DNA of 64,000 nt from IMG/VR virus record IMGVR_UViG_3300011164_000019, positions 1 to 64,000 of that record. One strand, written 5' to 3'. Shown one piece after another: positions 1-30,166 of this stretch (its first letter is position 1; each line of letters begins with the position of its first letter). The position numbers were made by a program, and so were the translations under genes. The notes beneath the pieces were generated by a model that was not told the origin of the DNA, did no database searches, and saw only the letters and a list, made by a program, of their open reading frames with translations. This stretch comes from a virus (lineage: Duplodnaviria > Caudoviricetes).

Positions 1-1188
1 TTAGGTTTCGCTTCGGGCCAATTTCGGGGCAATTTTCAATTTTCCCATCTCGGTCCAATCACCCTCACCATCGATCCAGCGTGCGTATCGAGAGAGGAGA
101 ATTTGTAACGAGTGACCCAGCTGTTTGGCGATGAAGGCAGGGGTCATCCCGGCCATCAGGCACATGGTTGCGTACGTGTGGCGCGCATTGTACGGAGGAC
201 GGTATCGAATACCCAGCGCCTTCAGGGTTGGACGCCACTGATGGTGCAGGTCACTCGTCTGCTGGATGAACTGATGCCCCTTGCTGGGTGGGAAGCAGTG
301 AGGGAATTCCTTGATCCTTCCCGATCCCTTGGCTCGCCGTTCGGCATACGCCTTGGCGAACTCCAGGGCATGCACAGCCCGGTCATTGAGCAGCACGTAC
401 CGATCCTTCTTGGTCTTGGTCCGGTCTTCCACTTCCTTGAGGGCAACTGTTCGACGAACCAGCACACGACGCTTCTCCAGCTCGACGGAATCCCACTGCA
501 GTGCAGCGATCTCGCCCAGGCGCATGCCTGTGTAGAAGGCGAACTCGAAGAAGGCAGCGTATATACCGCTTGGCCAGTGATCGGTGGCATACAGCCTGTC
601 GATGATCAGATCAGCCTCTTCCTGAGTGAACGGATCAATGGTCTTTTCCTTGGGGCGGGGAATGTCCAGATCGACCATGGGGTTCTCGGCGATGATCTTG
701 TCGCTCACAGCTGATTCCAGGATGGTGCTCAGCTTGTTCATCGCATTGGCTTTGACGCCATCGGTGGTCCAGGGAATGCGTACCACCAGTTCACGCATAA
801 ATGCCGTGGTCAGGGTGGTCATCGGTGTGGTGGCCAGGTACTTCATCCACCAGTGGTTGAGTACTGACCGGTAGTTGACCCGTGTGCCTTCCGCCAGCTC
901 ACGGCTATCGAGCCAGACCTGAGCGTACTGGCCAAAGGTGTAGCTGACGGCAGCCATGGTATTGGTGGAAGTGGGGAACAGCTCGGCATAGGCCTCGGGA
1001 GTGAGGGTGCCGTGCTTGGCCATCTGGACTACTTTATCTCGTAGACGGGATGCAGCCGTGATCCCCGCTTGCGTCGTGGGGTAGTCAAGGGTCTCGGAGC
1101 AGCGTTTTCCGTTCCAACTGAATCGGATACGGAGCGCACCGTAGTGGAGTTCAACTCCTGTGGGCAGTGCCACTGGCTTTCTTGCCAT
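1..1188 (-). CDS. int: Tyrosine recombinase (phage integrase) with N-terminal arm-binding domain
   Basis: Catalytic motifs TGMRLGE, YNARHTYAT, QLGHS, RYARW; SD GAGGT. Confidence 0.95.
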   Translation of the reverse strand: MARKPVALPTGVELHYGALRIRFSWNGKRCSETLDYPTTQAGITAASRLRDKVVQMAKHGTLTPEAYAELFPTSTNTMAAVSYTFGQYAQVWLDSRELAEGTRVNYRSVLNHWWMKYLATTPMTTLTTAFMRELVVRIPWTTDGVKANAMNKLSTILESAVSDKIIAENPMVDLDIPRPKEKTIDPFTQEEADLIIDRLYATDHWPSGIYAAFFEFAFYTGMRLGEIAALQWDSVELEKRRVLVRRTVALKEVEDRTKTKKDRYVLLNDRAVHALEFAKAYAERRAKGSGRIKEFPHCFPPSKGHQFIQQTSDLHHQWRPTLKALGIRYRPPYNARHTYATMCLMAGMTPAFIAKQLGHSLQILLSRYARWIDGEGDWTEMGKLKIAPKLARSET

Positions 1189-1379
1189 GTTTCAAACCTC
1201 GATCGGCTGTAGTAAATGCGGCCATTCATGCGGTTCCAGACCCCTTCAGGGATCTGCTTCCTTGCTCTTCTGGCTTCCAGAGAGCGGTCGGTGGTGCCCA
1301 GAATTTCAGCCATCTGCTGTTCGGTTACCTTGTCGGGATACCATTCTGGGAGTTCCTTGATCTGCTTTTCTACGGACAT
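1029..1379 (-). CDS. Excisionase-like small DNA-binding protein overlapping int
   Basis: wHTH-like N-terminus (EQQMAEILGTTDRSLEARRAR...GRIYYS); directly upstream of and overlapping int by 160 bp. Confidence 0.65.
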   Translation of the reverse strand: MSVEKQIKELPEWYPDKVTEQQMAEILGTTDRSLEARRARKQIPEGVWNRMNGRIYYSRSRFETWQESQWHCPQELNSTTVRSVSDSVGTENAAPRPLTTPRRKRGSRLHPVYEIK

Positions 1380-1439
1380 GACGAATCCTTCCCCTGGTCG
1401 AGCCAGGGGAATGCAAGGATGTTGTGGGGGAGTGGGGTG

Positions 1440-1610
1440 TTACTGGATTGTTACTACTGCGAGGATCGCCCAAGCCATGTAGTAGATGGCTTTTGTTTCC
1501 TTGCCTTTGTTCCAGCTAAACCACGCGACCAGTGCAAAGACTGGGGAAGCCAGCAAGGCGAGAAGGTGTGCAAAGTGCCTACCTAATTCAAACCAATCAG
1601 ACAGGTTCAT
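1440..1610 (-). CDS. 56-aa membrane protein (not in ORF track)
   Basis: Manual translation MNLSDWFELGRHFAHLLALLASPVFALVAWFSWNKGKETKAIYYMAWAILAVVTIQ; ATGA overlap with upstream gene; two hydrophobic segments. Confidence 0.7.
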   Translation of the reverse strand: MNLSDWFELGRHFAHLLALLASPVFALVAWFSWNKGKETKAIYYMAWAILAVVTIQ

Positions 1611-1981
1611 GGCATCAGCTCCTTAGGGACCTGTACCGTGTCACCGAGCTTGCTGGCGACGAGGCAGCGCATGGCCGCGATGAGTGCGGTGGTCCCCCAA
1701 CCTTCAAAACCGGGTGATTGAGCCACTATCTGCTCATGGCGCTCACTGCTAATGCCAAACCTGCGCTGCATTAGTCTGTCAATGATCGGGCCGCCCTGGC
1801 CCCAGTCGGTGGAGGGCTGCCAGCGAATGCCCTCACGCTGCTCCCATTCGGAACGGTACAGCGCATTCCCACGGCTGTTTTTGAAAGGCGTGACTATCGG
1901 TTCGTGCCCATCAGCCTTAGCCACCGCCCAGTCCAGCGTCGGCCCAATCAGTTCGGCGGTTTTCACTTCTACTAGGCTCAT
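1607..1981 (-). CDS. DUF2591/NinX-like phage protein
   Basis: LDWAVAKA...PSTDWGQGGPII...TALIAAMRCLVASKLG pattern. Confidence 0.75.
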   Translation of the reverse strand: MSLVEVKTAELIGPTLDWAVAKADGHEPIVTPFKNSRGNALYRSEWEQREGIRWQPSTDWGQGGPIIDRLMQRRFGISSERHEQIVAQSPGFEGWGTTALIAAMRCLVASKLGDTVQVPKELMP

Positions 1982-2331
1982 GAGTTACCTCCTTGTGTGA
2001 TAGGGCCGAAGGCGAGCAGACCACCTGAGGCCTGCTGCAGAGCTTGGTCCTTGGAACGAACCACATAACAGATGTGGTAGTTGTCTTCTGGGTCGACGAC
2101 CAGATAAGCATTGGCACCTTCCGGCTCCATGTTCAGACTGTCGTCCTGCTCCGGCTGCTGCTCGGTCTGCGCGGGGCGGGTGGCTCTGGCTTGCCAGCCT
2201 GTCCAGAAATCTCGGTAAATGGCGTTCTTGTATTGACCGTATTCGTCGCGCTCTAGCTGCTGTCGCTTGGCGCCCGGCCACTGCTGATCGGCCCAAGCCT
2301 CGAACGCCTGCCGCTCTAATTCAATATTCAT
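1978..2331 (-). CDS. Hypothetical prophage protein
   Basis: ERQAFEAW...FWTGWQARA pattern common in prophages; overlaps both neighbours. Confidence 0.7.
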   Translation of the reverse strand: MNIELERQAFEAWADQQWPGAKRQQLERDEYGQYKNAIYRDFWTGWQARATRPAQTEQQPEQDDSLNMEPEGANAYLVVDPEDNYHICYVVRSKDQALQQASGGLLAFGPITQGGNS

Positions 2332-2834
2332 CTGGCGAATTCTCCGTAATGTGTAATCTCGGCTGACTTCCTGGCGCAGGCGGCATCGAAAATGCTGGCG
2401 AAAGTCCCCAGGTGTGCCAGTCGTTTATTCACACGAATGCTGGCTCGCCATTTTTGGGATTGCGGATGAAAATAGATGCCCTTGGCCCCGGTCGTATTGG
2501 TGACGGGTAGCTTGCAGTTCTGCATGTTCTGGCAGATCGACGCGCCCCTGAGATTCTCGATTCGGTTGTTAGAGGGGTTGCCGTCGATAGGGTCGACGTA
2601 TTCTGGTAGCTCGCCGTGGAACATGAAGTAGACGAGCCGGTGGCAAGCAATCATCCGCCCGCGCGTCGGATGGATTCGCATGTATCCATCCCGATCAGGA
2701 CGGCCGACCAACTTGCCGACATTTCTTTTTTGGCAGGTCGTTACCCAATAGAGCGACCCATCCGCGTATCGGACTCGCCCAGCAAGGTCTTGGCAGTATT
2801 CCAGCTCAGTCTTCATGGCTCTGGCCCCGCTCAT
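2328..2834 (-). CDS. HNH-AP2 homing endonuclease, catalytic His replaced by Pro
   Basis: HRLVY...VDPIDGNPSNNRIENLR followed by AP2-like KWRASI...HLGTF. Confidence 0.8.
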   Translation of the reverse strand: MSGARAMKTELEYCQDLAGRVRYADGSLYWVTTCQKRNVGKLVGRPDRDGYMRIHPTRGRMIACHRLVYFMFHGELPEYVDPIDGNPSNNRIENLRGASICQNMQNCKLPVTNTTGAKGIYFHPQSQKWRASIRVNKRLAHLGTFASIFDAACARKSAEITHYGEFAR

Positions 2835-2985
2835 CCTGCGCCGGGGCTGGCTCTACCGGATCGGCCTGCTGGGATAGGGCGGTGTCGATACTTGCCGCCA
2901 GCTTTGGATACCCTACTTCCCTGACGATCATGCGGCAGTCACGCAGTAGTTCACGGAGCCTTTTATTTTCCTGTTCCGCTGTCAT
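2806..2985 (-). CDS. Hypothetical protein (59 aa)
   Basis: Start reassigned to ATG 2985 with SD GAGGTG. Confidence 0.5.
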   Translation of the reverse strand: MTAEQENKRLRELLRDCRMIVREVGYPKLAASIDTALSQQADPVEPAPAQDERGQSHED

Positions 2986-2986
2986 C

Positions 2987-3682
2987 TCACACCTCGATGG
3001 GTTTACGCACCTGCTGCCAGCCATGACAGTTGGAACACTGCAGGAGCTTGGTGGATTGGTAGAACACAGCTCCGGTGCCTTGCAGCTTGTGGTCACAACG
3101 GCAGAGCTTGGGTTGGGTTTCCTGAGAGAAGACCTTTACCTGCTCGATGAACCGGGTGAATGTCTCGCCTTGGTAGGTTTCTTCAACCTTCAGGTACAGC
3201 TCTTCGAGCGAACCATCGTTGAGGATCTTCTTGCGTGGGTAGGCTTCCCATTCGGCCATCTCGCTGACGTGACCTCCTACCGGGAAGAAGTCCGGTCGAA
3301 CGATGTGCCACAGCTCGCCACCGTGCTTGAGGATCATGTCCGCTTCGTTGTGAAAACGAACGTCGCTGATGACCAAAGGCATATCCAACTCGACGAAGTG
3401 CTTGACCTTCTGCTCGGTCAGCAGCACCCAAAGTTCCGGGTGGATCTGGTTCCGGCCCCATTCAGTCCCGAGGGTCTGCATGAGTTGACGGGGTGACTTG
3501 CCAAGCCAGTCGATCGGTTTCTCACGGTCACCGTCACGGAACAGGTCACCGAAAGCGGCTTCCAGCATCTGCTTCATGGGATCTGCAAAGGCGACTTGGG
3601 TGAATTTGTGTCGTCTGGCCAGGTAACCGGCCACGGTGTCTTTGCCACTACGGGCACGGCCAATCAAGCCAATGAGTTTCAT
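2987..3682 (-). CDS. Deoxynucleoside monophosphate kinase with C-terminal Cys-rich extension
   Basis: MKLIGLIGRARSGKDT P-loop, RQLMQTLGTEWGR, ISDVRFHNE; SD AGGAG. Confidence 0.88.
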   Translation of the reverse strand: MKLIGLIGRARSGKDTVAGYLARRHKFTQVAFADPMKQMLEAAFGDLFRDGDREKPIDWLGKSPRQLMQTLGTEWGRNQIHPELWVLLTEQKVKHFVELDMPLVISDVRFHNEADMILKHGGELWHIVRPDFFPVGGHVSEMAEWEAYPRKKILNDGSLEELYLKVEETYQGETFTRFIEQVKVFSQETQPKLCRCDHKLQGTGAVFYQSTKLLQCSNCHGWQQVRKPIEV

Positions 3683-3725
3683 GGATTGCTCCTGAGAGGA
3701 AAGTCCGCGTCCTTGCGGATGGTGA

Positions 3726-5384
3726 TCAGGCTGCGGAGAGAATCTGCTTCTCTTCAGCCTCGGTGACGCCCAGAGCCGACCAGCTCTTCTTGGCTGACTT
3801 CTTGATCGAAACGATGTTGGAGGCATTGGCCTTGATGCCCGCAGTGATCAGGGCACGGATGCGCTCACGGGAAGAGCCAGTGGTGACCGGTGCAGCTTTC
3901 TCGGCAGGCTTCGGAGCAGCAGCTTTCTTGGCCTTGGGGGCCTTGGCTGCCGGGGCGACGGATTCAGCACCGTTGGCGATTGCCGTGATATAAGCCACCT
4001 GGCTTTCCGGAATGCCTAGCTTGTCCCAGCTGACCTTGGCGGCCTTCTTGAATGCCAGGAGTTCCTTGGCCTTCTGGATCTGCACCTTGCCGGTCTTGCC
4101 TTCCAGCACAGCCTTGAGCAGGGTTTCCGCTTGCTGCTGGCGACCCGACTTGCGCTCGGTGACCACTTGCTTGGCTACCTTGGCTGCGTCCACGCTGGTG
4201 CCTTCCTTGGCAACTTCTGGCAGCTCGTCGAGCGAGACAGCCTGCTTGGTTTCTTCCATGACCACTTCGGTGGCTTCGGCAACTGGGGTGATGATCAGTC
4301 CACCCCCGTACTGCTCGGTGATTTCCACGGTCTCCAACACACCGACGTGGTTGCCTGCAGCTGCGTTGCCCAGCAGCACGGTGTCCTTCATCGGACGGTT
4401 GCTGCACACCAGGTTGGCGTCTTCTTTCGAGAGCTGAGCAATGATGTGGTAGCCCTTGGCACGCAGCTTCCGTGGATCACGATGAGGCACAGCGATCACG
4501 TCTTCCGGTGCCAGCTTGGCCAGCACGCAGACGTTGCCATTGAAGCTGCTCAGGTAATCCCGGCGAGCCACATGCAGACCGTTGGAGCACTCGGTGTGGC
4601 GATTCGGATCAACCAGGTCCTCGCTCATGAAGACCTTGCTGCCGACCTTCTGCTTGACCCTCTTGGAGTGGCAGTCGACGAATACGCCTTCTTCGTTGGT
4701 GGACTCCAGGCGCTTGTACACCAGCACGGTGCCGTCATCAGCGATCGGCAGTTCGCCTTTCTCCATGAAGGTCAGCAGGTCCTGGACCGAGTGACGACGC
4801 TGTACCTTGGAGACGCGCTCGAAGAAGTTCTTCACGCCTTCGGCACTGCCCAGCTTGCTGGCCACCGCCTGGATCTGCACATCGATCTTCTCGATGCCAG
4901 GGATGATTCCACCGGAGGAGGTCACTGCCACCACGGTTTCGTCTTCACCCAGCGGGGCATGGAACTCCGGCGAGCTGACCGGTGTAGCGTGGGCCATGAT
5001 CTCGGCCACGGCAGCCTGGCTGGCCGTCTGGGGTGCAGCAGCCTGAGCCACTTCACCGACCGCGATCGGAGCAACCGGTGCATTGGACGAATCCAGGTCA
5101 GCAAACTTGCTGAACATGTCCTCGATGGTGTTCTTGAACATGCGGAAGAACTGCACGAAGCCACCCATGCCGGCCTGAGCTTCGTTGTAGTGGTTGCTGA
5201 TGGCGAGATCTTCGGTGGTCAGGTCGCAGAACTTGTCTGCTTCCAGTGCCGGGATCACTTTGTCCACCAGGGAACGGATACGGCTGTCGCCCTGTGGAAC
5301 CAGGATGGTGGTGCCATCCTGTTTGTAGAGGGTGAGTCGCTGGGTATCGACTACGGCAGCGATGATTCGAATAACTTCAGACAT
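3726..5384 (-). CDS. rIIB: rIIB-like protein
   Basis: LPIADDG...YK..., CSNGLHVA...Y motif; follows rIIA. Confidence 0.85.
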   Translation of the reverse strand: MSEVIRIIAAVVDTQRLTLYKQDGTTILVPQGDSRIRSLVDKVIPALEADKFCDLTTEDLAISNHYNEAQAGMGGFVQFFRMFKNTIEDMFSKFADLDSSNAPVAPIAVGEVAQAAAPQTASQAAVAEIMAHATPVSSPEFHAPLGEDETVVAVTSSGGIIPGIEKIDVQIQAVASKLGSAEGVKNFFERVSKVQRRHSVQDLLTFMEKGELPIADDGTVLVYKRLESTNEEGVFVDCHSKRVKQKVGSKVFMSEDLVDPNRHTECSNGLHVARRDYLSSFNGNVCVLAKLAPEDVIAVPHRDPRKLRAKGYHIIAQLSKEDANLVCSNRPMKDTVLLGNAAAGNHVGVLETVEITEQYGGGLIITPVAEATEVVMEETKQAVSLDELPEVAKEGTSVDAAKVAKQVVTERKSGRQQQAETLLKAVLEGKTGKVQIQKAKELLAFKKAAKVSWDKLGIPESQVAYITAIANGAESVAPAAKAPKAKKAAAPKPAEKAAPVTTGSSRERIRALITAGIKANASNIVSIKKSAKKSWSALGVTEAEEKQILSAA

Positions 5385-5394: not shown

Positions 5395-7791
5395 TTACTT
5401 CAGAAGGTTGCGGACGAGGGTGTAAGGAATTTCACACTCGGCACTGCCTGGAGAGACTTCTTCCATCACGTTGGCCAAGTGAGTGAGGTCGATGAAGTCC
5501 GCCCAAGGCGAGTTCTCCATCTTTTCTTTGCATGTCTTGAGCAGCGGGTGCTCCTTGACATGTTGTGTCGCTTCCTTGCACTTCTCGAAGCTGCTCAGTA
5601 CTTGTTCCATGTTGCGGCAGATCTTCATCAGAACAGCGTTTTCCGGGGAGATGTGAAAACGCAGTCCCATGGACTTCATCAGATCTTCATGGAAGCAGGC
5701 ATTGAACAGAATCTTGTGTTTGTCGTAGTACCGGGGTTGCAAGTGTCCTGCGAATGCAGCGAAACGCTTGATATCAGGAGACTTTGCCAATTTCTCATCG
5801 GCATACTTGGTGAGGAACTTGGTCACTTGCTCGATTCCTTGTTCGGTGAGTTTCTTGGCTTGAGCATGGGTTACAACAGCGATCTGATCGCCCCAGTGTT
5901 TTTGGATGAGCTTGGAAGTACTGATGTTGAAGCTATCAACACAGTGATCACGCTCACCACTTGGACGGAGAGTTACCCAAGCAATAGGCTTCTCGATCAG
6001 TGTGTCGTCGGTGAAGTGTTCACGCGCATGCGATAGCAGGAAACTTCCGGTGTCCTTGTTGTAGCTGTGAGTCAGCGTCAAGTAACCATCTTTCTTCTTG
6101 CGACGCATCGGCTCTTTCTTCGGCAAAGTCGGATCGCGTACTACACGCGCCCGCTCAGGAAGATGAACTTCAACGGCATAGCCCTGTTGTTCCAGGAACT
6201 GATTGAGCTGTTCCTTGGTTGCCTCGGACTTCTTGCTGTAACCCACATACATCACCAGATAAGTCCGTAAGCGGGTACTGGCGTTGTTGCGGAAGTACTC
6301 TTGAGCTTGTTTCTGGTTGCGGGTGATCAGGGCATGCTTGTGCATCACGACCGTGATATCCCGTCGCTCTTTGTACGCTGCTTTATACGACTTGCAGAAG
6401 AAGCCGTAGTTATAACTACCGGTGTTCAGATAAGTCTGATAGGCAACTTCTTGCAGCGCAGGGACTGTTTTCAGTGCCTCCTGCAACGGGAAGTCGAGGT
6501 GACGGGTAACCAGGCTCAGGGCTGTTCGTCTACCATTCCACCCCGAAAGGCTCGGATCTTTCTGACGCAGCAATGCTTTGGCCAGTGGCTTAACCACTTC
6601 TCCACGACGAAGCAGCTCCTGCAGCATGCGTTTCTGCATCAGGTGATTGGGAATACGAGGACCTAAGTATTGCGCTGCAACCTGCATCGCAGCCTGTTTG
6701 ATCGTCGTGGAGAACCGACCAACTACTGTTTCTCTAGCGATAGCAGGGGTACAGGTAAGGCACGCTTCATTGATGTACCAGCTACGCAAGGTAGCTGTTT
6801 CTGCTTCACGCACCTGACGATTCAGCTTGGCGTAACAGAGTTGCCGTACCACTTTCTCGCTGGATTCACGCCCTTTGAAGTCGTACTTGTCCAGCAGGCC
6901 CTTGACGGTGTTCACCGTGGCATCGGTCAGAATGATCGCTTCCCGGTTGGGGGCAATCGAGATGCTGTCCGGTGGAGCCATGAAGATAATGGAAGCGTTA
7001 CTCCAGAGATGGCGCAGATCGTTGACGATGTGGTGGTACTGGTCGCCGTACTCCTCACGATACGGAACCGGGTACACCACGTTGCCATAGCGCAGGTTGA
7101 TCTCCTGGCCAACGGTTCCCCGGAAGTCGATGATCGCGTAGCCAGTCGGGCTGGTTGACAGGGGCAGGGTGACCAAAGGATCTGCACCATTGATGCTGGC
7201 CTGGATCTCGCCCAGGATCAGCACCTCACGGATCAGCTTCAGGAACTCCTGCTGGTCCTGGGTCTGGATACCGAACGACACGGCAATGCCAGTCTCATCG
7301 GTCGGCAAGGACACGATCTTGTTGATCGATGGCTTACCGCCTTTCTCCATCGAGGACTTGGAGACTCGGTAAATGGTCTTCACGCCCAGGTGGTGAGAGG
7401 CCACCTCGAAGTTGTCGGTGTAGGCGAACGGAGCCTTGCTGCCCAGACCAAAACCACCGGTCGACTTGGAGTCACCACGCTTGGTGGAATTGCCATATAC
7501 CCCGTAGATCGGCCCGATCTCGGCATGGGCAATACCGAAGCCGAAGTCACGCACGGTCAGCTGAGTGCTGGTGAGGGTGATCTGCAGTGGGGTATCGGTC
7601 TTGCCTGCAGCGATGTGGGCATCCCAACCGTTACAGATGATCTCACGCACCACAGCCAGTTTGGGGTGGGTGTAAAGGGTAGAGGACAGGATGTGCATCA
7701 GGGCTGCGTCATCGCTTACGCCCATCTCCACGGTTTCCTGGTTACCAATCACGGCGTGCGTGATGAAATCGTCTTGCTGACTTACTTGCAT
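5395..7791 (-). CDS. rIIA: rIIA-like protein (N-terminal GHKL ATPase fold)
   Basis: LSSTLYTHPKLAVVREIICNGWDAH, VRDFGFGI, GGFGLGSKAPFAY. Confidence 0.88.
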   Translation of the reverse strand: MQVSQQDDFITHAVIGNQETVEMGVSDDAALMHILSSTLYTHPKLAVVREIICNGWDAHIAAGKTDTPLQITLTSTQLTVRDFGFGIAHAEIGPIYGVYGNSTKRGDSKSTGGFGLGSKAPFAYTDNFEVASHHLGVKTIYRVSKSSMEKGGKPSINKIVSLPTDETGIAVSFGIQTQDQQEFLKLIREVLILGEIQASINGADPLVTLPLSTSPTGYAIIDFRGTVGQEINLRYGNVVYPVPYREEYGDQYHHIVNDLRHLWSNASIIFMAPPDSISIAPNREAIILTDATVNTVKGLLDKYDFKGRESSEKVVRQLCYAKLNRQVREAETATLRSWYINEACLTCTPAIARETVVGRFSTTIKQAAMQVAAQYLGPRIPNHLMQKRMLQELLRRGEVVKPLAKALLRQKDPSLSGWNGRRTALSLVTRHLDFPLQEALKTVPALQEVAYQTYLNTGSYNYGFFCKSYKAAYKERRDITVVMHKHALITRNQKQAQEYFRNNASTRLRTYLVMYVGYSKKSEATKEQLNQFLEQQGYAVEVHLPERARVVRDPTLPKKEPMRRKKKDGYLTLTHSYNKDTGSFLLSHAREHFTDDTLIEKPIAWVTLRPSGERDHCVDSFNISTSKLIQKHWGDQIAVVTHAQAKKLTEQGIEQVTKFLTKYADEKLAKSPDIKRFAAFAGHLQPRYYDKHKILFNACFHEDLMKSMGLRFHISPENAVLMKICRNMEQVLSSFEKCKEATQHVKEHPLLKTCKEKMENSPWADFIDLTHLANVMEEVSPGSAECEIPYTLVRNLLK

Positions 7792-7802: not shown

Positions 7803-8264
7803 TTAGAAATTTAATTTATGAGGTAAGCCATTCAACTTGATGTATTCATCACGGTATTTCGCAGCAGCAAGCTCCGTATCAAATACGCCCAAGTGGGTAT
7901 TTCGGCCTTTATGGTCGATCGCAGCCCTCCACTTGTTTCCGTGGATGCTTCGGATGCCAATAAATTTATGTTTTGTCCCGCGTCGTTTACGACGATTGGC
8001 TGCCTGACTGCTTTCAGTTACCCATGTGCAGTTATCAGGACGGTAGTGGTCTTGCAGGTTACGGCGTTCTATTTCGAGAGAGTCGTTGTAACCGGAGCAG
8101 AAGGCCCAGTCCCGAAAGTTCGGGTAACTCAGCCACTCTTCGCACACCGTAATGCCTCGACCACCGTAGTCGGCAAAGCAAGTTGCTTTTGGGTTAAAGC
8201 AGCGTTGCTTCATGTTTGCCCAGATTCTGTACAAACGACCTTTGTATGAAGAATCTACCTGCAT
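7803..8264 (-). CDS. HNH-type/AP2 homing endonuclease
   Basis: RLYRIWANMKQRC...YGGRGITVCEEW...NCTWVT, C-terminal AP2; start reassigned to 8264. Confidence 0.8.
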   Translation of the reverse strand: MQVDSSYKGRLYRIWANMKQRCFNPKATCFADYGGRGITVCEEWLSYPNFRDWAFCSGYNDSLEIERRNLQDHYRPDNCTWVTESSQAANRRKRRGTKHKFIGIRSIHGNKWRAAIDHKGRNTHLGVFDTELAAAKYRDEYIKLNGLPHKLNF

Positions 8265-8287
8265 GATTTTTCCTTGGTACTGAAATG

Positions 8288-8312
8288 AAGAAGCCCGCAC
8301 AGGGCGGGCTTT
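8288..8312 (-). terminator. Putative intrinsic terminator
   Basis: AAGCCCGC-acagg-GCGGGCTT hairpin. Confidence 0.55.
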
Positions 8313-8326
8313 AGGATTCGTTTGGG

Positions 8327-8680
8327 TCAGGCTGCGATGCGTTGGAACAGCACGGCATTGCCTCGGTGGGTGTTCTCCTGGACGGTTACAGGGTCCAGAT
8401 GGGCTGGGTTGCAGCACTTGCGTGTACGGCAGAGGTGATCAAGCACCAGTCCGTCTTCGATCGGGCCACTGAAGTGCTCGAAGGTGACTCGGTGAACCAT
8501 CAGGCGTTTGCCCTTGACCCATACCCGGCCATAGCCGTTACGGTTGAGTTCGCCGATCCACTCCCAGCAGCCAGTGCCCTCGTTCACCCGGATACGCGAC
8601 TGAATGCGTTCCAGGATGGAAGGATCTAACGGCACAACAGGTCTCCTAGTGACAGGCCTCCTGGATTGCAACTTCGGCAA
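8327..8680 (-). CDS. HNH endonuclease
   Basis: CWEWIG...GYGR...HRV...LDHLCRTRKCCNPAHL. Confidence 0.88.
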   Translation of the reverse strand: MPKLQSRRPVTRRPVVPLDPSILERIQSRIRVNEGTGCWEWIGELNRNGYGRVWVKGKRLMVHRVTFEHFSGPIEDGLVLDHLCRTRKCCNPAHLDPVTVQENTHRGNAVLFQRIAA

Positions 8681-15785: not shown

Positions 15786-16892
15786 TCAGATGTTGTAGTG
15801 GATAACTTTCCCGTAGGGCGCAGTGAACTTCTTGTTATTGTGGATGACCCACAATACAGGACACTTCGGTGCTGGCATTACATGCCTGAACTCACCGTCA
15901 CTGAATACCAAGAGTGCAACTGGTTTGTTGTCTCTGGCCCACTGGATTACTTCTGAAACATTCGTACCACCACGTCCGTGGAACGTGACCTGTTGCAAGT
16001 CAGATACACTCTTGAGTACATCCTTCTTGTGGATGCGTGTATCAAACTGCAACAGAGTTATTTGCGATGGCTTCAGCTTTTTCATAATCCCATTTACTTC
16101 ACTGATGAAGCGACGGAAGTCTGAGTTGCTGACTGAGCCTGAAGTATCAACAGCAACGGCTATTTCACCGAGGGTAATGCCGTAGAGAGTTGGGAGAATG
16201 TGTTCAGGCATGAAACGGCGATTGGGCCGCTTCCAGGTGTAGTCCGTCTTGGCGAACTGATTGAAGAACTTCCGCAGTAACTTGTCCCACGGAAGAATCG
16301 GGTTGAGGTATTCATCCAGGAAGATCTGGATATCACCTGGAATGGTGCCTGGCTTGTCACCGCTCATGGCTGACTGCGTGGCAGCCCGCATGACGATATC
16401 GGTGATGTGCTGCTCGGCCTGTTTCTGCTGCTCAGGAGATTGAGGGCCTGGTGGCAGATCCTGCATGCGAGGCTGACCTGGATTGTCAGGCAGCAGGTCA
16501 TACACCTGCAGCGTGCTCATGCCCTTGAACTGGGAGTCCTTGAGGACCCAATCAGGCATCTTGAAGCCACGCTCCAGCAGCATCAGGTTGATGACGTGAT
16601 CGCCAGCGATGTTCCACTTGTCCGGGCAACGATCGCCACGACGCACGGTGTGCATCAGGGCAGGGTGCATGCACTCATGCACCAGCACGAAGATCCGCTC
16701 TTCTTCGGAGAGTGAGAGGAAGAATTGGGGGTTGATGCCGATGGTTGTGTCGTTCACATACGCATTCGGCTGAGTATCGTCAAAGACAATACGGAACGAA
16801 AAACAGAGGGTGGTGAAGAAAGCACTATCAGGCTTACTCATAAGGCCGATCTTGGCTTTGTCGAGAGCCTTATTGGCATCTTGCAATGACAT
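15786..16892 (-). CDS. Putative metallopeptidase with vWA domain
   Basis: HECMH (HExxH), WNIAGDHVIN, MIDAS DTSGS; start reassigned to 16892. Confidence 0.88.
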   Translation of the reverse strand: MSLQDANKALDKAKIGLMSKPDSAFFTTLCFSFRIVFDDTQPNAYVNDTTIGINPQFFLSLSEEERIFVLVHECMHPALMHTVRRGDRCPDKWNIAGDHVINLMLLERGFKMPDWVLKDSQFKGMSTLQVYDLLPDNPGQPRMQDLPPGPQSPEQQKQAEQHITDIVMRAATQSAMSGDKPGTIPGDIQIFLDEYLNPILPWDKLLRKFFNQFAKTDYTWKRPNRRFMPEHILPTLYGITLGEIAVAVDTSGSVSNSDFRRFISEVNGIMKKLKPSQITLLQFDTRIHKKDVLKSVSDLQQVTFHGRGGTNVSEVIQWARDNKPVALLVFSDGEFRHVMPAPKCPVLWVIHNNKKFTAPYGKVIHYNI

Positions 16893-16995
16893 GGTGAACT
16901 TCCTTTGAAGTTGATAGTTGCAACTGACCGGACAATAAAAGTCCAACTTGCAGGCGTAACTATCCTGCAAATTGAACTTCTAAAGTGTGCTGGGG

Positions 16996-17151
16996 TTACT
17001 TACGATTCCGACGAATCTCGGAACACTTCCTGTGACTGATAGGGGAACTTCCCCCCCGGTGCCTTCCGCAAATATCGCAAGTGCTGCGCAATGTATCTTC
17101 CAGTGATTTGCTTCGCAAAGTACTGGGTTTCCATTGCGCCTTACTACTCAC
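16996..17151 (-). CDS. Small Cys/His (zinc-finger-like) protein, 51 aa
   Basis: CDICGRHR...HRKCSEIR; GTG start overlapping csrA stop. Confidence 0.45.
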   Translation of the reverse strand: MSSKAQWKPSTLRSKSLEDTLRSTCDICGRHRGGSSPISHRKCSEIRRNRK

Positions 17152-17320
17152 TGACAACTTCCGATTTTTTCTTGTTCTTGATGTTATCCCGTTGGATCTC
17201 AATTTCTTTCGGGGCATCAATACCAATACGGGTTTGACCGTTCTGGGTACCAAGAATACGGACAACAATGTTGTCACCAATGTGGACTGCTTCACCTGCC
17301 TTGCGGGTAATTACTAGCAT
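17144..17320 (-). CDS. csrA: CsrA/RsmA-family translational regulator (58 aa; not in ORF track)
   Basis: MLVITRKAGEAVHIGDNIVVRILGTQNGQTRIGIDAPKEIEIQRDNIKNKKKSEVVSE aligns without gaps to CsrA; R6 and R44 kept; SD AAAGGAAG. Confidence 0.9.
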   Translation of the reverse strand: MLVITRKAGEAVHIGDNIVVRILGTQNGQTRIGIDAPKEIEIQRDNIKNKKKSEVVSE

Positions 17321-21404: not shown

Positions 21405-21441
21405 GGGGAGTTGCTTCACAAAGTGCGCGGAGCGCACCTGT

Positions 21442-22689
21442 TCAACTTAAGGCATAGTTCGATTTGCGGATGTACTCAGACAAGTTCTGCATACGCTTAG
21501 GGACGGTGCCAGCAACACCATGGATCTGGCTCAGAATGTCACTGAGGACTTCCGAGTCAGCCAGTTCTGCAAGGATCTCCTTGTACCAGTGACGCACCCA
21601 GTTGACGTTGTTGGTATGGGCCGCGAACGAGTCATGGATGGTGATCACCGGGAACGGACGGTACTGCAGCATCCCATTGAGGATAGTGCTCAGTTGATAC
21701 AGCTCTGGTTTGGTCAGTGAGCACACTGTTGTGGCGTCCAGATAGGGCAGGATCACTGCACTTGGCTGGCCGCTTCGACGGTACTGCTCAAGGTAGTAGG
21801 CGAAGACGGAATCCTCGTCATACCCCAGAGGCTCGCACTCATAGTCGAGCATGTTGCGGCTCAACAACTCAGCCTCGATCAGCGTCTTGGCTTGGCTCGC
21901 TACTGATACGTCGTAGTTACAGCGACGCAGCAGCTCACGCAGGATGAAGGCGTCGATGGAGTGGATGACATTGGCCACGTTGGCACGGCCAGTCTTCTCA
22001 CCCTCGTTGACGTAGTACTCGTAGGTGAAGGTGGCATGGTCCAGCTCATCCACCTCGATACGAGTGGTCTCCTTGACCATCACCTTGACCTTGGCATCGA
22101 AGCCATCAGGCAGCTTCCACGCATGGCTCAGTGCGAATGGTTGCCAGCTGGCCAGCAGATCCTGCAGCAGTTCCCATGCACCTGGTGCCACGATCTCGAC
22201 AGCCTCATAGAAGGCTGCCAGCTCTTGGGTGCCTTCACCGAACAGGACCTTCGGCACCTTCTTGGAGCCGTAGCAGCTGGTCATGAGTGCCTGCTTGGTG
22301 TGCTTGCGAGGGACGGAGAATCCGCCACCCAACAAGCCATTCATGCACTCGTTCAGGTCGGTGTAGGCATCGGCACGACGGTCAGGATCGACCAGACCGG
22401 TAGCCTTGGCACCTGCGATGCAGCCGGTGAGTACCGACATGATCTGCACACCCGAGCAGGTGGCATCCATGGCCACCAGATGACCAGTGGGCTGGCCAGC
22501 TTGAGCCTTGCGAATGGCCATCACAGCCTTGAGGTACAGCGGCTTGGTTTCAGCCTGATCGAGCAGATCCTCCAGATGGTCGAGGTTGTCCCGTGCCCAT
22601 TGGATGCGATCTTCGAAGCGGAGCTTGTCGAGGCCGAAGTTGTTGGCAGCGTCAATCAGCAAATACTCAAAGCCAGTGAATTTCATCAT
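21442..22689 (-). CDS. RNA polymerase II subunit 2 (RNAP2)
   Basis: MDATCSGVQI (motif A), KQALMTSCYGS (motif B), IHDSF (motif C). Confidence 0.93.
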   Translation of the reverse strand: MMKFTGFEYLLIDAANNFGLDKLRFEDRIQWARDNLDHLEDLLDQAETKPLYLKAVMAIRKAQAGQPTGHLVAMDATCSGVQIMSVLTGCIAGAKATGLVDPDRRADAYTDLNECMNGLLGGGFSVPRKHTKQALMTSCYGSKKVPKVLFGEGTQELAAFYEAVEIVAPGAWELLQDLLASWQPFALSHAWKLPDGFDAKVKVMVKETTRIEVDELDHATFTYEYYVNEGEKTGRANVANVIHSIDAFILRELLRRCNYDVSVASQAKTLIEAELLSRNMLDYECEPLGYDEDSVFAYYLEQYRRSGQPSAVILPYLDATTVCSLTKPELYQLSTILNGMLQYRPFPVITIHDSFAAHTNNVNWVRHWYKEILAELADSEVLSDILSQIHGVAGTVPKRMQNLSEYIRKSNYALS

Positions 22690-22764
22690 GGTTTCAATTC
22701 CTTTGGGCAATAGGGGACCGCCCCAGTGTTGATCACACCGGTAAGCGATTGATTTGGTTGTGGT

Positions 22765-22968
22765 TTAACGCCCCAAGAGGAGGGCTAGGGTTTTCACTTC
22801 GACAGGTACATCGTCTGGGTCACACGGCAGATGCGTACCGTGACTGATGCGAATCCAGTTACCGAATGGGGTGATGGCGAAAGCCCCATCCGGTAGATCG
22901 TCAGGCCATGTGACAGGGGTGTACTCGCCGTATACTTGTGATCCGTAGAACACGACATAAGTCTTCAC
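22765..22968 (-). CDS. Small early protein
   Basis: ORF between RNAP1 and RNAP2. Confidence 0.7.
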   Translation of the reverse strand: MKTYVVFYGSQVYGEYTPVTWPDDLPDGAFAITPFGNWIRISHGTHLPCDPDDVPVEVKTLALLLGR

Positions 22969-23945
22969 ACACCCTCCACGATCTCTTCATCGGCCAGCTC
23001 AACGATGGCCTTCTTGAATGCACTGCCTTGGGTTGTGATGTGGTAGCCGATGGCATACAGCCGGCCACGCTTGTCCACCTTGTTGGTCAGGTAGAAGCGA
23101 TTGCCTTGGTTGATCATTAGCATGTACATCTGGTTGGACTCAGCCTTGAAGGTGTCCCAGTTGTCGATTTGCTGTTGCAGGATCTCCTTGGCTTGAGCAT
23201 CGGTCAGCACTTCACCGTCTTCGAGAGCCTTGTCCTTCACGTTCTCCACACTGAAGGGTTTGTTGGGTTCCTCTTCCATGGCCAGCAGGAAGTCCACGTC
23301 CAGCTTGAGCGGGATCTGGTTCTGCAGGTTGATTACGTCCAGACACAGGTCACCGTCATGGTGATTGCCCTTGCCGAGCACAAGTGAATCGTTGTGGGTC
23401 TGGTGACCTGACTCATGGTTGTGGGTGACCAGATTGGGTGGACACACCATAGGTGGCAGGAAGCGTGAGTTGTACACGTAGTTGAGCATCTTCTCGCTGA
23501 GCGGAATGCGGCTCTGGATCATCAGGCTGGCAGCGTTGCTCAGCTTGTTGATATCGAATACGTCAGTGGCACACAGCACAGCCACCATCTCGGCGATGGT
23601 CTGGATGCCTTCACGCTTCTCGCTGAAGTGCAGCCGGCCTGCCAGCTGAGCCGTCACCGAGGTGAATAGCTCTTCACGCTGGCAGTAGGCGATCTGCACG
23701 AAGATGGTCAGCACCAGCTCCTCCAGATCAAGGCCACGGACCTGTTCCAGTCGTGCCATCTTGGATTCGTAGTACTGGCCGTTCAGCCAGTCATTGAGCA
23801 GCTGAACGCCTTCCTGCACCTTGGCCTTCATCCACTCATTGGCCTCGATATCCTTGCGGATATAGCGGTCGATGTGATGCTTGGAGAACCGGTGTTCGTT
23901 GGCCAACTGTATGTCGTACGGCAGCATCAGAGTGGGATGAGTCAT
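22965..23945 (-). CDS. RNA polymerase II subunit 1 (RNAP1)
   Basis: LPPMVCPP, DKRGRLYAIGYHITTQG. Confidence 0.92.
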   Translation of the reverse strand: MTHPTLMLPYDIQLANEHRFSKHHIDRYIRKDIEANEWMKAKVQEGVQLLNDWLNGQYYESKMARLEQVRGLDLEELVLTIFVQIAYCQREELFTSVTAQLAGRLHFSEKREGIQTIAEMVAVLCATDVFDINKLSNAASLMIQSRIPLSEKMLNYVYNSRFLPPMVCPPNLVTHNHESGHQTHNDSLVLGKGNHHDGDLCLDVINLQNQIPLKLDVDFLLAMEEEPNKPFSVENVKDKALEDGEVLTDAQAKEILQQQIDNWDTFKAESNQMYMLMINQGNRFYLTNKVDKRGRLYAIGYHITTQGSAFKKAIVELADEEIVEGV

Positions 23946-25224: not shown

Positions 25225-25245
25225 TCCGTCACTCCAGCGAAGCTG
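25225..25245 (-). promoter_or_regulatory. vRNAP hairpin promoter
   Basis: + (template) strand TCCGT-cactc-CAGC-GAA-GCTG. Confidence 0.75.
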
Positions 25246-25264
25246 TCTGACGAAAACGACGCAT

Positions 25265-25304
25265 AAATAAAAAGGCCCACTACCCCATGAGGGCAGCAGG
25301 CCTT
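25265..25304 (-). terminator. Intrinsic terminator after Drc-like gene
   Basis: AAGGCC...GGCCUU long hairpin plus U tract. Confidence 0.7.
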
Positions 25305-25324
25305 GGATGCAGCGGAGAACGGGC

Positions 25325-25594
25325 TTAGAAGCCGAGTTCGTTCTCCTTCACCTCTTTGTCGGCGAGCTGGAAGTCCAGCATGATCGCCTCCTGCATCTTC
25401 TGGATGGCCAGAGGATCAGAGGACAGACGCTTGAGCAGCGCAGCCTCGTAGGCCTTCGATTCCTTCAGGGAGATCGAACCGATCTTGCGACGGCCACCAT
25501 CCGGAGTCGGAAGGTAGATGTTGATGAAGCCTTGGGAGCGCCAGTTTTCGTTGGCAACTTGAGGCTGGGCATTGCGAGCGGTGTTGAACGCCAT
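25325..25594 (-). CDS. Drc/gp2-like ssDNA-binding cofactor of RNAP II
   Basis: FINIYLPTPDGGRRKIGSISL resembles LUZ7 Drc; early position upstream of RNAP1. Confidence 0.7.
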   Translation of the reverse strand: MAFNTARNAQPQVANENWRSQGFINIYLPTPDGGRRKIGSISLKESKAYEAALLKRLSSDPLAIQKMQEAIMLDFQLADKEVKENELGF

Positions 25595-25638
25595 GGTGAA
25601 TCTCCTTGCATTGGTCAGGTTGAGCGAAGGTGCTCGAT

Positions 25639-25660
25639 TCCATCTCTCCGGCGAAGCCGG
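25639..25660 (-). promoter_or_regulatory. vRNAP hairpin promoter
   Basis: TCCAT-ctct-CCGGC-GAA-GCCGG. Confidence 0.8.
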
Positions 25661-25696
25661 GCAGACGGTGGGAACGGGTAAAGCGTTGAGGCTGAC

Positions 25697-25867
25697 TCAG
25701 GCCAGCTCGATAGCGACGTAGTAGCCACGGCTGGCGTAGTAGTCCTCGATGGCACGAGCTATGGATTCATCGACGGTATCGACTGCGAGAAGCTGATCTT
25801 CATCGCTGACATAGATCGAGGCGACGGAATGCTCGTCGACCTCGATCAGAGGGAAAGAGGAGGTCAT
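25697..25867 (-). CDS. 56-aa acidic early protein (not in ORF track)
   Basis: MTSSFPLIEVDEHSVASIYVSDEDQLLAVDTVDESIARAIEDYYASRGYYVAIELA; SD GGAGG. Confidence 0.7.
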   Translation of the reverse strand: MTSSFPLIEVDEHSVASIYVSDEDQLLAVDTVDESIARAIEDYYASRGYYVAIELA

Positions 25868-25983
25868 ACCAGACCTCCGAGATAACCGAAGATGAAGGCC
25901 AACAACACTCCACTGAAGAACAGTGTGAGTTTGTCGTCTCTAGTCAGGCCATGAGCCTCTTGCTTGTTATCAACTGTAGTCAT
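25864..25983 (-). CDS. 39-aa membrane peptide (not in ORF track)
   Basis: MTTVDNKQEAHGLTRDDKLTLFFSGVLLAFIFGYLGGLV; SD AAAGGAA. Confidence 0.65.
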   Translation of the reverse strand: MTTVDNKQEAHGLTRDDKLTLFFSGVLLAFIFGYLGGLV

Positions 25984-26015
25984 GTTGAATTCCTTTGAAG
26001 TAAAGACTCACTTCC

Positions 26016-26034
26016 TCAAGCGAACGGAGTTCGC
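26016..26034 (-). promoter_or_regulatory. vRNAP hairpin promoter
   Basis: GCGAAC-GGA-GTTCGC 6-bp stem with triloop. Confidence 0.75.
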
Positions 26035-26055
26035 CTGAAGAACTGAAGAGAAGTG

Positions 26056-26247
26056 TTAGAGCTGTACTTGCTGACCTGCTGCATTGAGTAGGCGAGCACT
26101 CAATACAGTTTGACGATCAGCTCCTTGGAAGAACCCAGCTACTTGAGTAAGCGCGTCACTATCGTCAGCAGCGAGCAATGCAACGTCTCGGTTGTTGTAC
26201 TTGAGGGTGTAGCGCTGAGTCTTCTTACGAGGATGTAGGAAGGCCAT
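26056..26247 (-). CDS. Small early protein
   Basis: SD GGAG. Confidence 0.7.
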   Translation of the reverse strand: MAFLHPRKKTQRYTLKYNNRDVALLAADDSDALTQVAGFFQGADRQTVLSARLLNAAGQQVQL

Positions 26248-26269
26248 AGCAGTTCTCCGGTATGCAGGG

Positions 26270-26416
26270 TTAATTGCAGAAGGGTTGAATCAGGTAGTTG
26301 TGTCCTACCTCAGGTGTTGCACACCACTGAGGCATGTTGTGATTGAACAGGAGTCCAACCACAACCAGATGGAATACAACGATGAATGCAATGAGCAATG
26401 AGACAGTGGGTTGCAT
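26270..26416 (-). CDS. 48-aa membrane peptide
   Basis: MQPTVSLLIAFIVVFHLVVVGLLF...; start reassigned. Confidence 0.5.
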   Translation of the reverse strand: MQPTVSLLIAFIVVFHLVVVGLLFNHNMPQWCATPEVGHNYLIQPFCN

Positions 26417-26429
26417 AAGAGCCTCGGAA

Positions 26430-26603
26430 TTAGAAAGGGATTTCATTGGGTAGCTCAAGAGCACCATTGATCTCGAAGAAGTATTCGTCTGAGCTTTCAC
26501 GAAGAGCACATGCACACATGGAGTTCCCATAGAACTCCTTGCCGTTCTTGAAGGCTTCAACCATGAAGTGTGTGAAGTATTGAAAGACGTGGAAGTTGTC
26601 CAT
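26430..26603 (-). CDS. Small early protein (57 aa)
   Basis: SD GGAG before ATG 26603. Confidence 0.6.
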   Translation of the reverse strand: MDNFHVFQYFTHFMVEAFKNGKEFYGNSMCACALRESSDEYFFEINGALELPNEIPF

Positions 26604-26669
26604 AACACTGTCTCCAGACATGAGGATGCACCCGACAAGCAACTTATCGGGTGTATATCGGTTTCGGTT

Positions 26670-26843
26670 TTAGGTAGGAATACCCCAATCATGCTGGGAG
26701 TAGTCGGGAGCAACTTGGTGTTCTGAGAAGAACTCCTCGTGCTTCACTTCCATATACGCAGCTTCATGCTCGTCGTCCGACATGAACACGGATTCGTTGA
26801 GGATGTTTTCTAGGAAAACAATAACGTGTTGGTTGTGGTACAT
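26670..26843 (-). CDS. Small acidic early protein (57 aa)
   Basis: ATG 26843 lies downstream of the hairpin promoter; SD AGGA. Confidence 0.6.
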   Translation of the reverse strand: MYHNQHVIVFLENILNESVFMSDDEHEAAYMEVKHEEFFSEHQVAPDYSQHDWGIPT

Positions 26844-26865
26844 GAGCAATGTCCTGTGGTGAATA

Positions 26866-26886
26866 TCCACTGCTCACGCGAAGCGT
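26866..26886 (-). promoter_or_regulatory. vRNAP hairpin promoter
   Basis: TCCAC-tgctc-ACGC-GAA-GCGT. Confidence 0.75.
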
Positions 26887-26949
26887 TGAGTATTGGTCTC
26901 TCTAAGACTCACTGTCTCAATGTGTATTGTGTACTTGTGTATAAAGCTG

Positions 26950-26973
26950 TAACCCACTCCGAAGAGTGGGTTA
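26950..26973 (-). terminator. Strong hairpin, probable terminator
   Basis: UAACCCACUC-UUCG-GAGUGGGUUA; U tract weak. Confidence 0.65.
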
Positions 26974-26977
26974 GTGG

Positions 26978-27064
26978 TTAGCGCTGAGGCAGGCTCAGGC
27001 AGAACCAGAAGGTGAAGGCGAATGCTGCGAGTGCAACGAATGGGAGTACTTGAAGGGCTTGCAT
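26978..27064 (-). CDS. 28-aa hydrophobic peptide (not in ORF track)
   Basis: MQALQVLPFVALAAFAFTFWFCLSLPQR; SD TAAGGA. Confidence 0.55.
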   Translation of the reverse strand: MQALQVLPFVALAAFAFTFWFCLSLPQR

Positions 27065-27073
27065 GATATGTCC

Positions 27074-27256
27074 TTATTGAGCAGGTGCTTCGAGTGCAGC
27101 GAGCTGTTTCTCCATGGAGGCAAGCTCATGGTTCAGTTTGAGTTGGGATTGCTTGAGCATGTGCTCAGAGTGCAGTTCACCAACTGCGACTACGTTGTCG
27201 AGGGTGTTGAGGCCACGGGTGAGTAGGCCAAAGAACTTAGCGATTGCTGCGAACAT
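27074..27256 (-). CDS. First early gene (gp1-like position)
   Basis: Directly after the outermost hairpin promoter. Confidence 0.7.
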   Translation of the reverse strand: MFAAIAKFFGLLTRGLNTLDNVVAVGELHSEHMLKQSQLKLNHELASMEKQLAALEAPAQ

Positions 27257-27304
27257 AGGTGAATCCTCATGAGGTTAGGGTAAGTGCAGATGCGTCCATC
27301 CACA

Positions 27305-27326
27305 TCCATAGCTACGGCGAAGCCGG
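27305..27326 (-). promoter_or_regulatory. vRNAP hairpin promoter (outermost)
   Basis: TCCAT-agcta-CGGC-GAA-GCCG. Confidence 0.8.
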
Positions 27327-27368
27327 TGAAGTGGGGTAGGTAGTAGGGAAAAGGTAGAACGAAGCAAT

Positions 27369-27378
27369 GGGGGGGGGG
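27369..27378 (+). repeat. G10 homopolymer in divergent early/late junction
   Basis: Ten consecutive G within a G-rich stretch. Confidence 0.9.
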
Positions 27379-27504
27379 TGGTTTGGTAAATCGGGATCGA
27401 ATCAGTCAGTACTAGGTTCGTACCCAAATTATAAAATTCGCCAAAATCCGAGGACCGATTTCGCCAATCAACTTTTCTTCCGTACACTTCTCCTCATTCC
27501 AATT

Positions 27505-27532: not shown

Positions 27533-27564
27533 GTTCACCCTATATGGTGAATAGGGGTTCCTTC

Positions 27565-30157: not shown

Positions 30158-30166
30158 GGAATCCCT

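Follow-up and report, generated by a model that had tools for sequence, protein, structure and literature searches.

A very probably temperate N4-like phage of Stutzerimonas, recorded as a provirus, and its attachment site at the 5' end of an ABC-F gene

The viral record IMGVR_UViG_3300011164_000019 is 74,640 bp long, and its first 64 kb are the stretch of DNA analysed here (the window). We think it very probable that what was recorded is an integrated prophage, and that the phage is a temperate N4-like one of the Schitoviridae type whose hosts belong to Stutzerimonas (the Pseudomonas stutzeri group). The source database classes it as a provirus, and CheckV gives it as 100% complete. Its large open reading frames are all open, including that of the virion RNA polymerase (vRNAP), the virion-encapsidated enzyme whose gene is the hallmark of N4-like phages. 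At the left end of the window lie a tyrosine integrase gene (int) and an overlapping excisionase gene (xis), and the two ends of the record sit on gene boundaries, running from the integrase stop codon (bases 1-3) to the stop codon of a gene for a holin of 140 amino acids (aa); neither a terminal repeat nor host DNA is present anywhere in the 74,640 bp. The initial annotation, made from the letters of the window, had already proposed a temperate N4-like phage, and this interpretation is supported by the provirus class, by both host junctions, by attP and by the empty attB of relatives. Host flanks and att repeats, on whose presence in some assembly that annotation had made its proposal depend, were both found in related assemblies.

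The att sites were deduced from related assemblies that were found with the integrase and the holin as queries. The int-side junction is contained in four contigs from four metagenomes (L012-L015), whose int genes are 91-98% identical to that of the record and whose N4 middle genes are 64-93% identical to it at the nucleotide level; one of them, the 65.7-kb contig L014, carries a vRNAP that is 95% identical to the record's, in an open frame of 3,427 aa. Host DNA follows int in these contigs for as much as 1.6 kb and matches Stutzerimonas and Pseudomonas chromosomes at 85-98% identity, and the host gene directly 3' of int encodes a ybiT-type ABC-F ATPase (NF011646, 1023 bits with a cut-off of 762). 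The holin-side junction was found in a contig that is likewise classed as a provirus (L040/G077), that comes, like L012, from metagenome 3300011753 and that has an N4 primase 80% identical to the record's; here the holin gene, a terminator and a set of repeats run on into a sequence that two Stutzerimonas genomes match with 100% identity across 225 nt.

The unintegrated partners of these junctions were also recovered. In three free or circular N4-like contigs (G071, G072 and L140) only a short spacer separates int from the end of the holin gene, which is the arrangement of attP. The two ends of G072 (74,540 bp) overlap by 154 nt bar one base in a G-run, and those of G071 (74,266 bp) abut at a C-run across which synteny is contiguous, so that both are to be read as circular maps broken at homopolymers. 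As to where these homopolymers lie, a run of ten G residues stands at ~27.37 kb (window ~27360-27375) between the divergent early and late operons, and the C-run of G071 follows rIIB (window ~3700); both sites are break points of related circular contigs, and the termini of an N4-type genome are expected at the 27.3-kb site. The attB site is empty in six Stutzerimonas species genomes (L120-L125). When metagenomes were scanned with a 27-mer from the int end and attP, only three contigs were returned, all of them attP forms and none of them the parent contig of the record, and a look-up with the exact integrase sequence returned no contig.

All four types of att site share an exact 24-bp core, ACCGCCAACATCACCATGCAGTTC, and similarity reaches ~11 bp further to the left, for ~35 bp in total. 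The core was seen in relatives and not in the record: in attB of the six genomes, in attP of the three contigs, in the int-side junction of L012-L014 and in the holin-side junction of L040. Two single-nucleotide polymorphisms (SNPs) just left of the core separate the phage form (ttgatTtcT) from the host form (ttgatCtcC), and it is the phage form that stays with int at the int-side junction and the host form that is found at the holin-side junction; from this reciprocal segregation it follows that the crossover falls inside the 24 bp. It might be argued that the record is instead a free circular phage genome that was opened at int by the database, and that the contigs with host junctions are chimeric. 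The absence of host DNA from the record itself and the assembly of the same type of genome as a circle in G071 and G072 would fit such an explanation, but it leaves unaccounted for the provirus class, the exact coincidence of both ends with the genes on either side of attP, the recurrence of the int-side junction in four contigs from four samples, and the origin of the holin-side junction from the same sample as L012. Moreover, both junctions break at the same 24-bp core with reciprocal flanking SNPs, and the empty attB is 100% identical; because random chimeras would not yield a shared core break, reciprocal SNPs and an identical attB, chimeras are unlikely and we regard this explanation as highly improbable.

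Integration takes place within a coding sequence. The ABC-F gene has TTG as its start codon, and the core occupies its codons 4-11, attB being its first 11 codons; the core variants in the attP sites of G071 and L140 differ solely at synonymous positions of the host codons. A tRNA gene as attachment site was considered and rejected: none is present in the window, and none lies 3' of int in 31 related loci, where the only exceptions are a tmRNA in L025 and, in L003, a tRNA-Thr that is unrelated and a long way upstream of int. At the int-side junction the ABC-F gene is restored without any amino-acid change; it lies 28 nt beyond the int stop codon and reads in the direction of int. The native ABC-F promoter lies in a 350-bp divergent intergenic region common to a gene for a TonB-dependent receptor, and after integration it is left with only an 11-codon stub that is closed by a phage TAG. 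The ABC-F gene is presumably co-transcribed with int in the lysogen. In a more speculative reading, the promoter swap would put a host gene for a ybiT-type ABC-F translation factor under phage control, which would be a form of lysogenic conversion.

Isolate genomes, too, have truncated remnants of int, which stand immediately before the ABC-F gene. One (L007/L008; L007 8669-10723, Stutzerimonas kunmingensis 28M-8) corresponds to integrase residues 146-395 with 86% identity, and another (L010 10001-10332) to residues 279-389. The L007/L008 remnant abuts homologues of two genes of the window, one of 40925-41407 at 53% identity and one of 41411-42760 that covers only the N-terminus, at 44%, and it may be a decayed relative of this prophage.

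The attP site lies between the stop codons of int and holin and measures ~245 bp in its best-preserved copy (L016), where the core is flanked to left and right by candidate arm sites and the arm repeats distal to it give way to a strong bidirectional terminator. The candidate arm sites have the sequence TTGSCCCGAA; in relatives there are two copies before and two to three after the core, on the same strand and within ~190 bp, and the whole 74.6 kb holds 13 copies on both strands. It seems likely that these repeats are arm-type sites for the arm-binding domain of the integrase. Two tandem copies are retained at the left end of the record (Table 1), and the core and the P' arm fall just outside it. 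Beyond the holin end of the record the sequence would be expected to run through the terminator and two or three TTGGCCCGAA repeats to the core, with the intergenic region of the gene for the TonB-dependent receptor behind it.

That the integrase is intact, as had been claimed from the window alone, is upheld by its matches to Phage_integrase and phrog_1 (Table 1), by an N-terminal arm-DNA-binding domain (Pfam Arm-DNA-bind_2, 8.4e-12, 45.4 bits with a cut-off of 22) and by its catalytic residues: alignment to XerA (5hxy) and inspection of motifs place R223, K261, R336, H359 and the nucleophile Y368, with Y333 at the His-II position. The xis-like reading of its neighbour likewise stands, as the protein matches phrog_9668 over the full profile; it also has a match to Pfam HTH_17 that stays under the cut-off of 27 bits (5.5e-05, 23.8 bits). 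The xis gene overlaps the start of int by 160 nt, which comprise the C-terminal 53 codons of Xis, and this overlap is near-identical (157 nt) in every relative checked (L001, L006, L018, L021, L022 and L031). In the model that we propose, a lambda-type arm-binding Int would recombine attP with attB, and Xis, to judge from its family, would direct excision. The N4 genome would be broken open at a point with int on one side and the lysis and tail-fibre arm on the other, and the prophage map would be a circular permutation of the virion map.

As judged from substitution ratios, int is under purifying selection: dN/dS is 0.065-0.13 within the N4-like lineage, and the part of xis that does not overlap int gives a value of 0.19 or less. 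In G071 the int-xis module has ~90% nucleotide identity to that of the record, and the central region of the vRNAP (G071 27680-32131, L034, compared with window 45173-50020) is 33% identical at the protein level; the module has therefore been kept on diverged backbones. The value of 33% suggests that the hallmark gene has been replaced or has diverged to an extreme degree within one lineage. The other segments of G071 that were compared with the record, namely the rII genes, the dNMP kinase gene and the lysis and tail-fibre arm, fall together with the module at ~75-90% nucleotide identity.

Where did an N4-like phage obtain this module? Integrases that are 68-77% identical, with the same overlapping xis and the same ABC-F site, are found in Pseudomonas, Stutzerimonas and related genomes, and they are met as well in other viral contigs, in which attP shows this core too; none of the five host genomes with related integrases that were tested contains a vRNAP. 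The nearest cultured relatives of Int are the integrases of Pseudomonas siphophages such as JBD44, MD8, PS-1 and YMC01/01/P52, at 44-53% identity, and siphophages of the JBD44, MD8 and PS-1 type are temperate. It is probable that the int-xis-attP module was acquired by an N4-like phage from ordinary temperate Pseudomonas or Stutzerimonas phages of the same hosts that used the same site. Capture en bloc of holin, attP and int from 40-kb phages with a related holin (L042-L045) was considered and rejected: only the holin matches. A stretch of 704 bp that contains an HNH gene (2153-2856) is 99.7% identical by BLAST to L021 7250-7953, in an unrelated 47.8-kb viral contig with an integrase that is 77% identical; such near-identity looks like the trace of very recent homing or exchange between phages of a shared host. 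HNH genes also lie elsewhere in the window. A second HNH endonuclease (7803-8417, minus strand, phrog_374, 4.5e-43) is without an aligned counterpart in the close relative G072, where ~870 nt of the record face an unaligned gap of ~117 nt, an insertion polymorphism, and there are further HNH genes at 15786-16970 and 53855-54412.

The module is shared in part with the Pseudomonas siphophages named above, which have the arm-binding integrase and an adjacent excisionase, but theirs sit in phages of ~40-57 kb and that of the record in an N4-type genome. These siphophages carry immunity regions of the CI/Cro type, and in this the record differs from them. A six-frame search of the whole 74.6-kb record found no CI/Cro, LexA-like, Arc/Mnt or Bro-type regulator: HTH_3 (PF01381), Peptidase_S24 (PF00717), RHH_1 (PF01402) and Bro-N (PF02498) gave no match at E<=1, and xis was found by the search with HTH_17 (PF12728) that served as a positive control. 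The earlier remark that no CI/Cro pair is recognisable therefore holds for the 74,640 bp as a whole. No Rfam family reaches threshold anywhere in the record.

How, then, would such a prophage be kept silent? The early promoters of N4 are read only by the vRNAP protein that is carried in the virion, and its late promoters need the SSB that is a middle-gene product; an integrated copy could therefore not start the cascade. In other words, the N4 cascade may be silent by default once integrated, the early promoters going unread for lack of injected vRNAP, and a non-canonical regulator may reinforce this silence. The best candidate for a lysogeny regulator is a lineage-specific helix-turn-helix (HTH) protein of 129 aa (Table 1), although a repressor role for it is a guess. 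Behind the RNAP II terminator, its gene is preceded by an intergenic region of its own, ~190 nt long, in which repeats as well as a palindrome are present, and the protein is 87-93% conserved in G070, G071 and G072, all of its relatives being at least 68% identical. It has no match in GenBank phages or among NCBIfam models; its AF2 prediction, with a mean pLDDT of 59.6, is too poor for a fold search, and its Atlas matches are all below 0.9 and comprise only generic domains of the HTH_7/23/38 type. Just 3' of the gene for the RNAP II large subunit (21430-21450, minus strand) there is a conserved hairpin with a 6-bp stem, GTGCGC-TCC-GCGCAC, which is followed by a conserved terminator. We tentatively raise the possibility of lysogeny without a classical repressor, in which silence would be the default, the choice between lysis and lysogeny and the induction of the prophage would depend on a new kind of switch, and the ABC-F promoter would be replaced; on balance we doubt that all of this is right. 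Candidates for the switch would be the 129-aa HTH protein, acting on RNAP II or on middle transcription, or a bypass driven by the host RNA polymerase that re-primes the cascade.

Several observations weigh against a functional temperate phage. The att core and the host flanks lie outside the record and are deduced from relatives, whose modules share 89-98% identity with its own. At the His-II position Int has Tyr in place of His. A scan of 1-4200 predicted no sigma-70-like promoter, be it for int or for xis. No cultured lysogen was found, and vRNAP is absent from 67 Stutzerimonas species representatives as well as from the five genomes with related integrases, in a search that covered one genome per species, so that an absence of lysogens is not shown by it, and with a query that does work on G070-G072. 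Besides the missing regulator families listed above, the LexA box CTGT-N8-ACAG has one match with 1.6 expected, which is chance level. With no recognisable repressor, antirepressor or LexA box, stable maintenance and induction of the prophage are at present only presumed. As for the substituted residue, the PYNARHTYAT motif that holds Y333 is invariant in 15 of 15 relatives, copies integrated in bacterial genomes included, and because of this invariance the Tyr at His-II is probably a family trait and not a defect.

Some of these points would also be expected if integration does occur but leads nowhere, the integrated copies being abortive or cryptic insertions of an essentially lytic phage that has neither stable immunity nor productive induction. 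Such an explanation would find room for the lack of a canonical repressor, antirepressor or SOS box, for the failure to find a lysogen among the 67 species-representative genomes, and for the truncated int remnants that two isolate genomes, L007 and L010, have at the ABC-F site. It is harder to square with a provirus record that is complete and in which every large frame is open, that of the 3,415-aa vRNAP included, with the open 3,427-aa vRNAP frame of the integrated copy in L014, with the conservation of a dedicated Xis and the purifying selection on int across two diverged N4-like backbones, and with the presence in metagenomes of both free attP and integrated forms of near-identical phages. 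We therefore consider dead-end integration improbable and retain the interpretation of the record as a temperate N4-like prophage.

The coordinates of the principal features are collected in Table 1.

Table 1. Principal features of the record, with positions counted from the first base of the window
Feature	Position	Strand	Basis or remark
Tyrosine integrase (int), 395 aa, arm-binding	1-1188	-	Phage_integrase 1.8e-19, 70.6 bits (cut-off 27.1); phrog_1 1.4e-55
Two tandem copies of the candidate arm-type Int site TTGSCCCGAA, 11-nt spacing	12-30 (12-19, 23-30)	-	Motif scan; inside last codons of int; P arm of attP
Excisionase (Xis), 116 aa, HTH at residues 19-69	1029-1379	-	phrog_9668 excisionase 1.7e-33, profile 13-114 of 114
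Small hydrophobic protein, 56 aa, between NinX and xis	1440-1610	-	No family above threshold (Pfam, PHROG)
NinX-family protein	1607-1981	-	Pfam Phage_P22_NinX PF10765 2e-14; phrog_4389 2.4e-30
HNH homing endonuclease	2328-2834	-	Pfam HNH_3 1.4e-11; phrog_99 1.4e-53
dNMP kinase (likely true start near 3685)	2987-3826	-	Pfam DNMK 1.3e-22; phrog_139 5.1e-53
rIIB-like and rIIA-like	3726-5384 and 5395-7791	-	tblastn to Zuri gp56 (51% identity) and gp55 (41%)
Lineage-specific HTH protein, 129 aa	20839-21228	-	Weak LacI/HTH_38 and phrog_1303 matches
N4-type RNAP II, two subunits (N4 gp15/gp16 type)	21442-22710 and 22965-23945	-	phrog_2051 2e-149; phrog_2166 'N4-like RNA polymerase' 7.6e-102
Four GCGAAGC mini-hairpins, candidate vRNAP promoters	25237, 25651, 26878, 27317 (25237-27323)	+ (template strand of leftward early region)	
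Late (virion) operon, N4-type	27367-42760	+	TerL 28400-30157, portal 31772-33952, major head protein 35581-36753; phrog_38, phrog_1216, phrog_1357
vRNAP, 3,415 aa, N4 gp50 type	42773-53020	+	phrog_2206 E=0, 1945 bits, profile 14-3405 of 3406
Second N4-type replication block	53466-64000	-	Holliday-junction resolvase, SSB 55945-56691, Sak4-like, primase 58135-60276, exonuclease, RNR large subunit from 62830
RNR small subunit, ThyX	past window, before + strand arm		
Tail fibres, endolysin, holin	66406-74640	+	Past window; arm ends at attP

That the genome is a full N4-type genome, another claim of the initial annotation, is confirmed by its vRNAP, RNAP II, portal, capsid, TerL, DNA polymerase, primase and SSB genes (the SSB, DNA polymerase and primase by profile matches to phrog_743, 17 and 2135) and by a synteny comparison in which the gene order largely tracks that of the Schitoviridae phage Zuri. 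TerL is ~71% identical to that of N4-like Vibrio phages, where it is annotated 'N4 gp68 like'; at only ~71% identity to the nearest isolate, there is therefore no close cultured relative. The conserved N4-type middle genes end with rIIB and rIIA, and the accessory and integration arm comes next; in a comparison with Zuri, it is this arm that breaks the middle operon after rIIB. Its xis and int reach the left end of the record, and it picks up again at the right end (66.4-74.6 kb), where the genes for holin, endolysin and tail fibres lie on the other strand. Much of the arm has a codon usage unlike that of the core genes. It also contains the NinX gene, of a kind typical of lambdoid and P22-type temperate phages; PF10765, which we take to be the family formerly named DUF2591, is matched here at 2e-14, in agreement with the earlier report of an adjoining prophage-type gene.

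The GCGAAGC pattern has 24 matches with 10.3 expected, and four of them lie on one strand within 2.1 kb; their stems are short, ~4 bp. Such mini-hairpins fit, but do not prove, a function as N4-type early promoters. Some other genes may be mentioned. A dUTPase gene (phrog_135, 3.1e-45) and a gene for a 114-aa protein without assigned function lie inside the late operon on the opposite strand, just before the portal gene (30973-31742, minus strand), at the position that is taken by lysis genes in Zuri; in the record the lysis genes adjoin attP instead. The early region encodes an 89-aa protein (25325-25594, minus strand) that matches phrog_6271 'toxin', of the host-takeover category, at 1.2e-08. 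Finally, the N4-type middle operon contains a gene for a 58-aa homologue of CsrA/RsmA (17144-17320, minus strand; Pfam CsrA 2.6e-20, 72.6 bits), possibly a post-transcriptional regulator of host or phage genes.

Escherichia phage N4 and the cultured Schitoviridae (Zuri, NC_049456; Vibrio phages pVa5 and VBP47) have the same vRNAP, RNAP II, SSB, DNA polymerase, primase, rIIA/rIIB, portal, capsid and terminase as the record, but they are lytic and without int, xis and attP, all three of which the record has. There is no Schitoviridae record among the listed GenBank phage matches to the integrase. Compared with these cultured phages, the middle operon of the record is split by an arm of ~12 kb that consists of dNMP kinase, HNH, NinX, xis, int and attP; the genes for holin, endolysin and tail fibres are read from the other strand.

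In the literature that was searched, lysogeny of N4-like phages traces back to one survey, published in mSystems in 2023, which describes 40 N4-like proviral regions in the integrated state, most of them from Moraxella, as well as lysogeny genes in 54 genomes, and in which lysogeny is proposed as the strategy of some N4-like lineages (PMC10654107). The initial annotation was thus correct that integrase-bearing N4-like sequences were known from surveys. The proviruses of the survey and the record are alike in having an N4-type backbone with an integrase and in being provirus regions of bacterial contigs; in the main text of the survey the words attP, attachment, repressor and Stutzerimonas are absent and no Pseudomonas or Stutzerimonas provirus is named, and relative to that text the record and its relatives add a full set of attB, attP, attL and attR, a target gene, candidate arm sites and a resolved Xis (PMC10654107). 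Integrase-bearing N4-like proviruses are, then, already published, and it is the resolved att system, the integration at the 5' end of an ABC-F gene and the finding of no canonical immunity gene that open the mechanism to direct tests here.

A general observation of a survey thereby becomes a specific and testable system, for which att primers can be designed from the core and its flanks. N4-like phages serve as models of transcription and as therapeutic candidates, in part on the assumption of strict lysis, and for the screening of phages for therapy the present case is a caution that an N4-type phage is not automatically non-lysogenic. Stutzerimonas is genetically tractable, and a temperate lineage of a family long held to be lytic would, in this culturable host genus, pose a mechanistic question of some interest: how a phage whose first transcription needs an injected polymerase may be silenced, and awakened again, without a regulator of the CI/Cro type.

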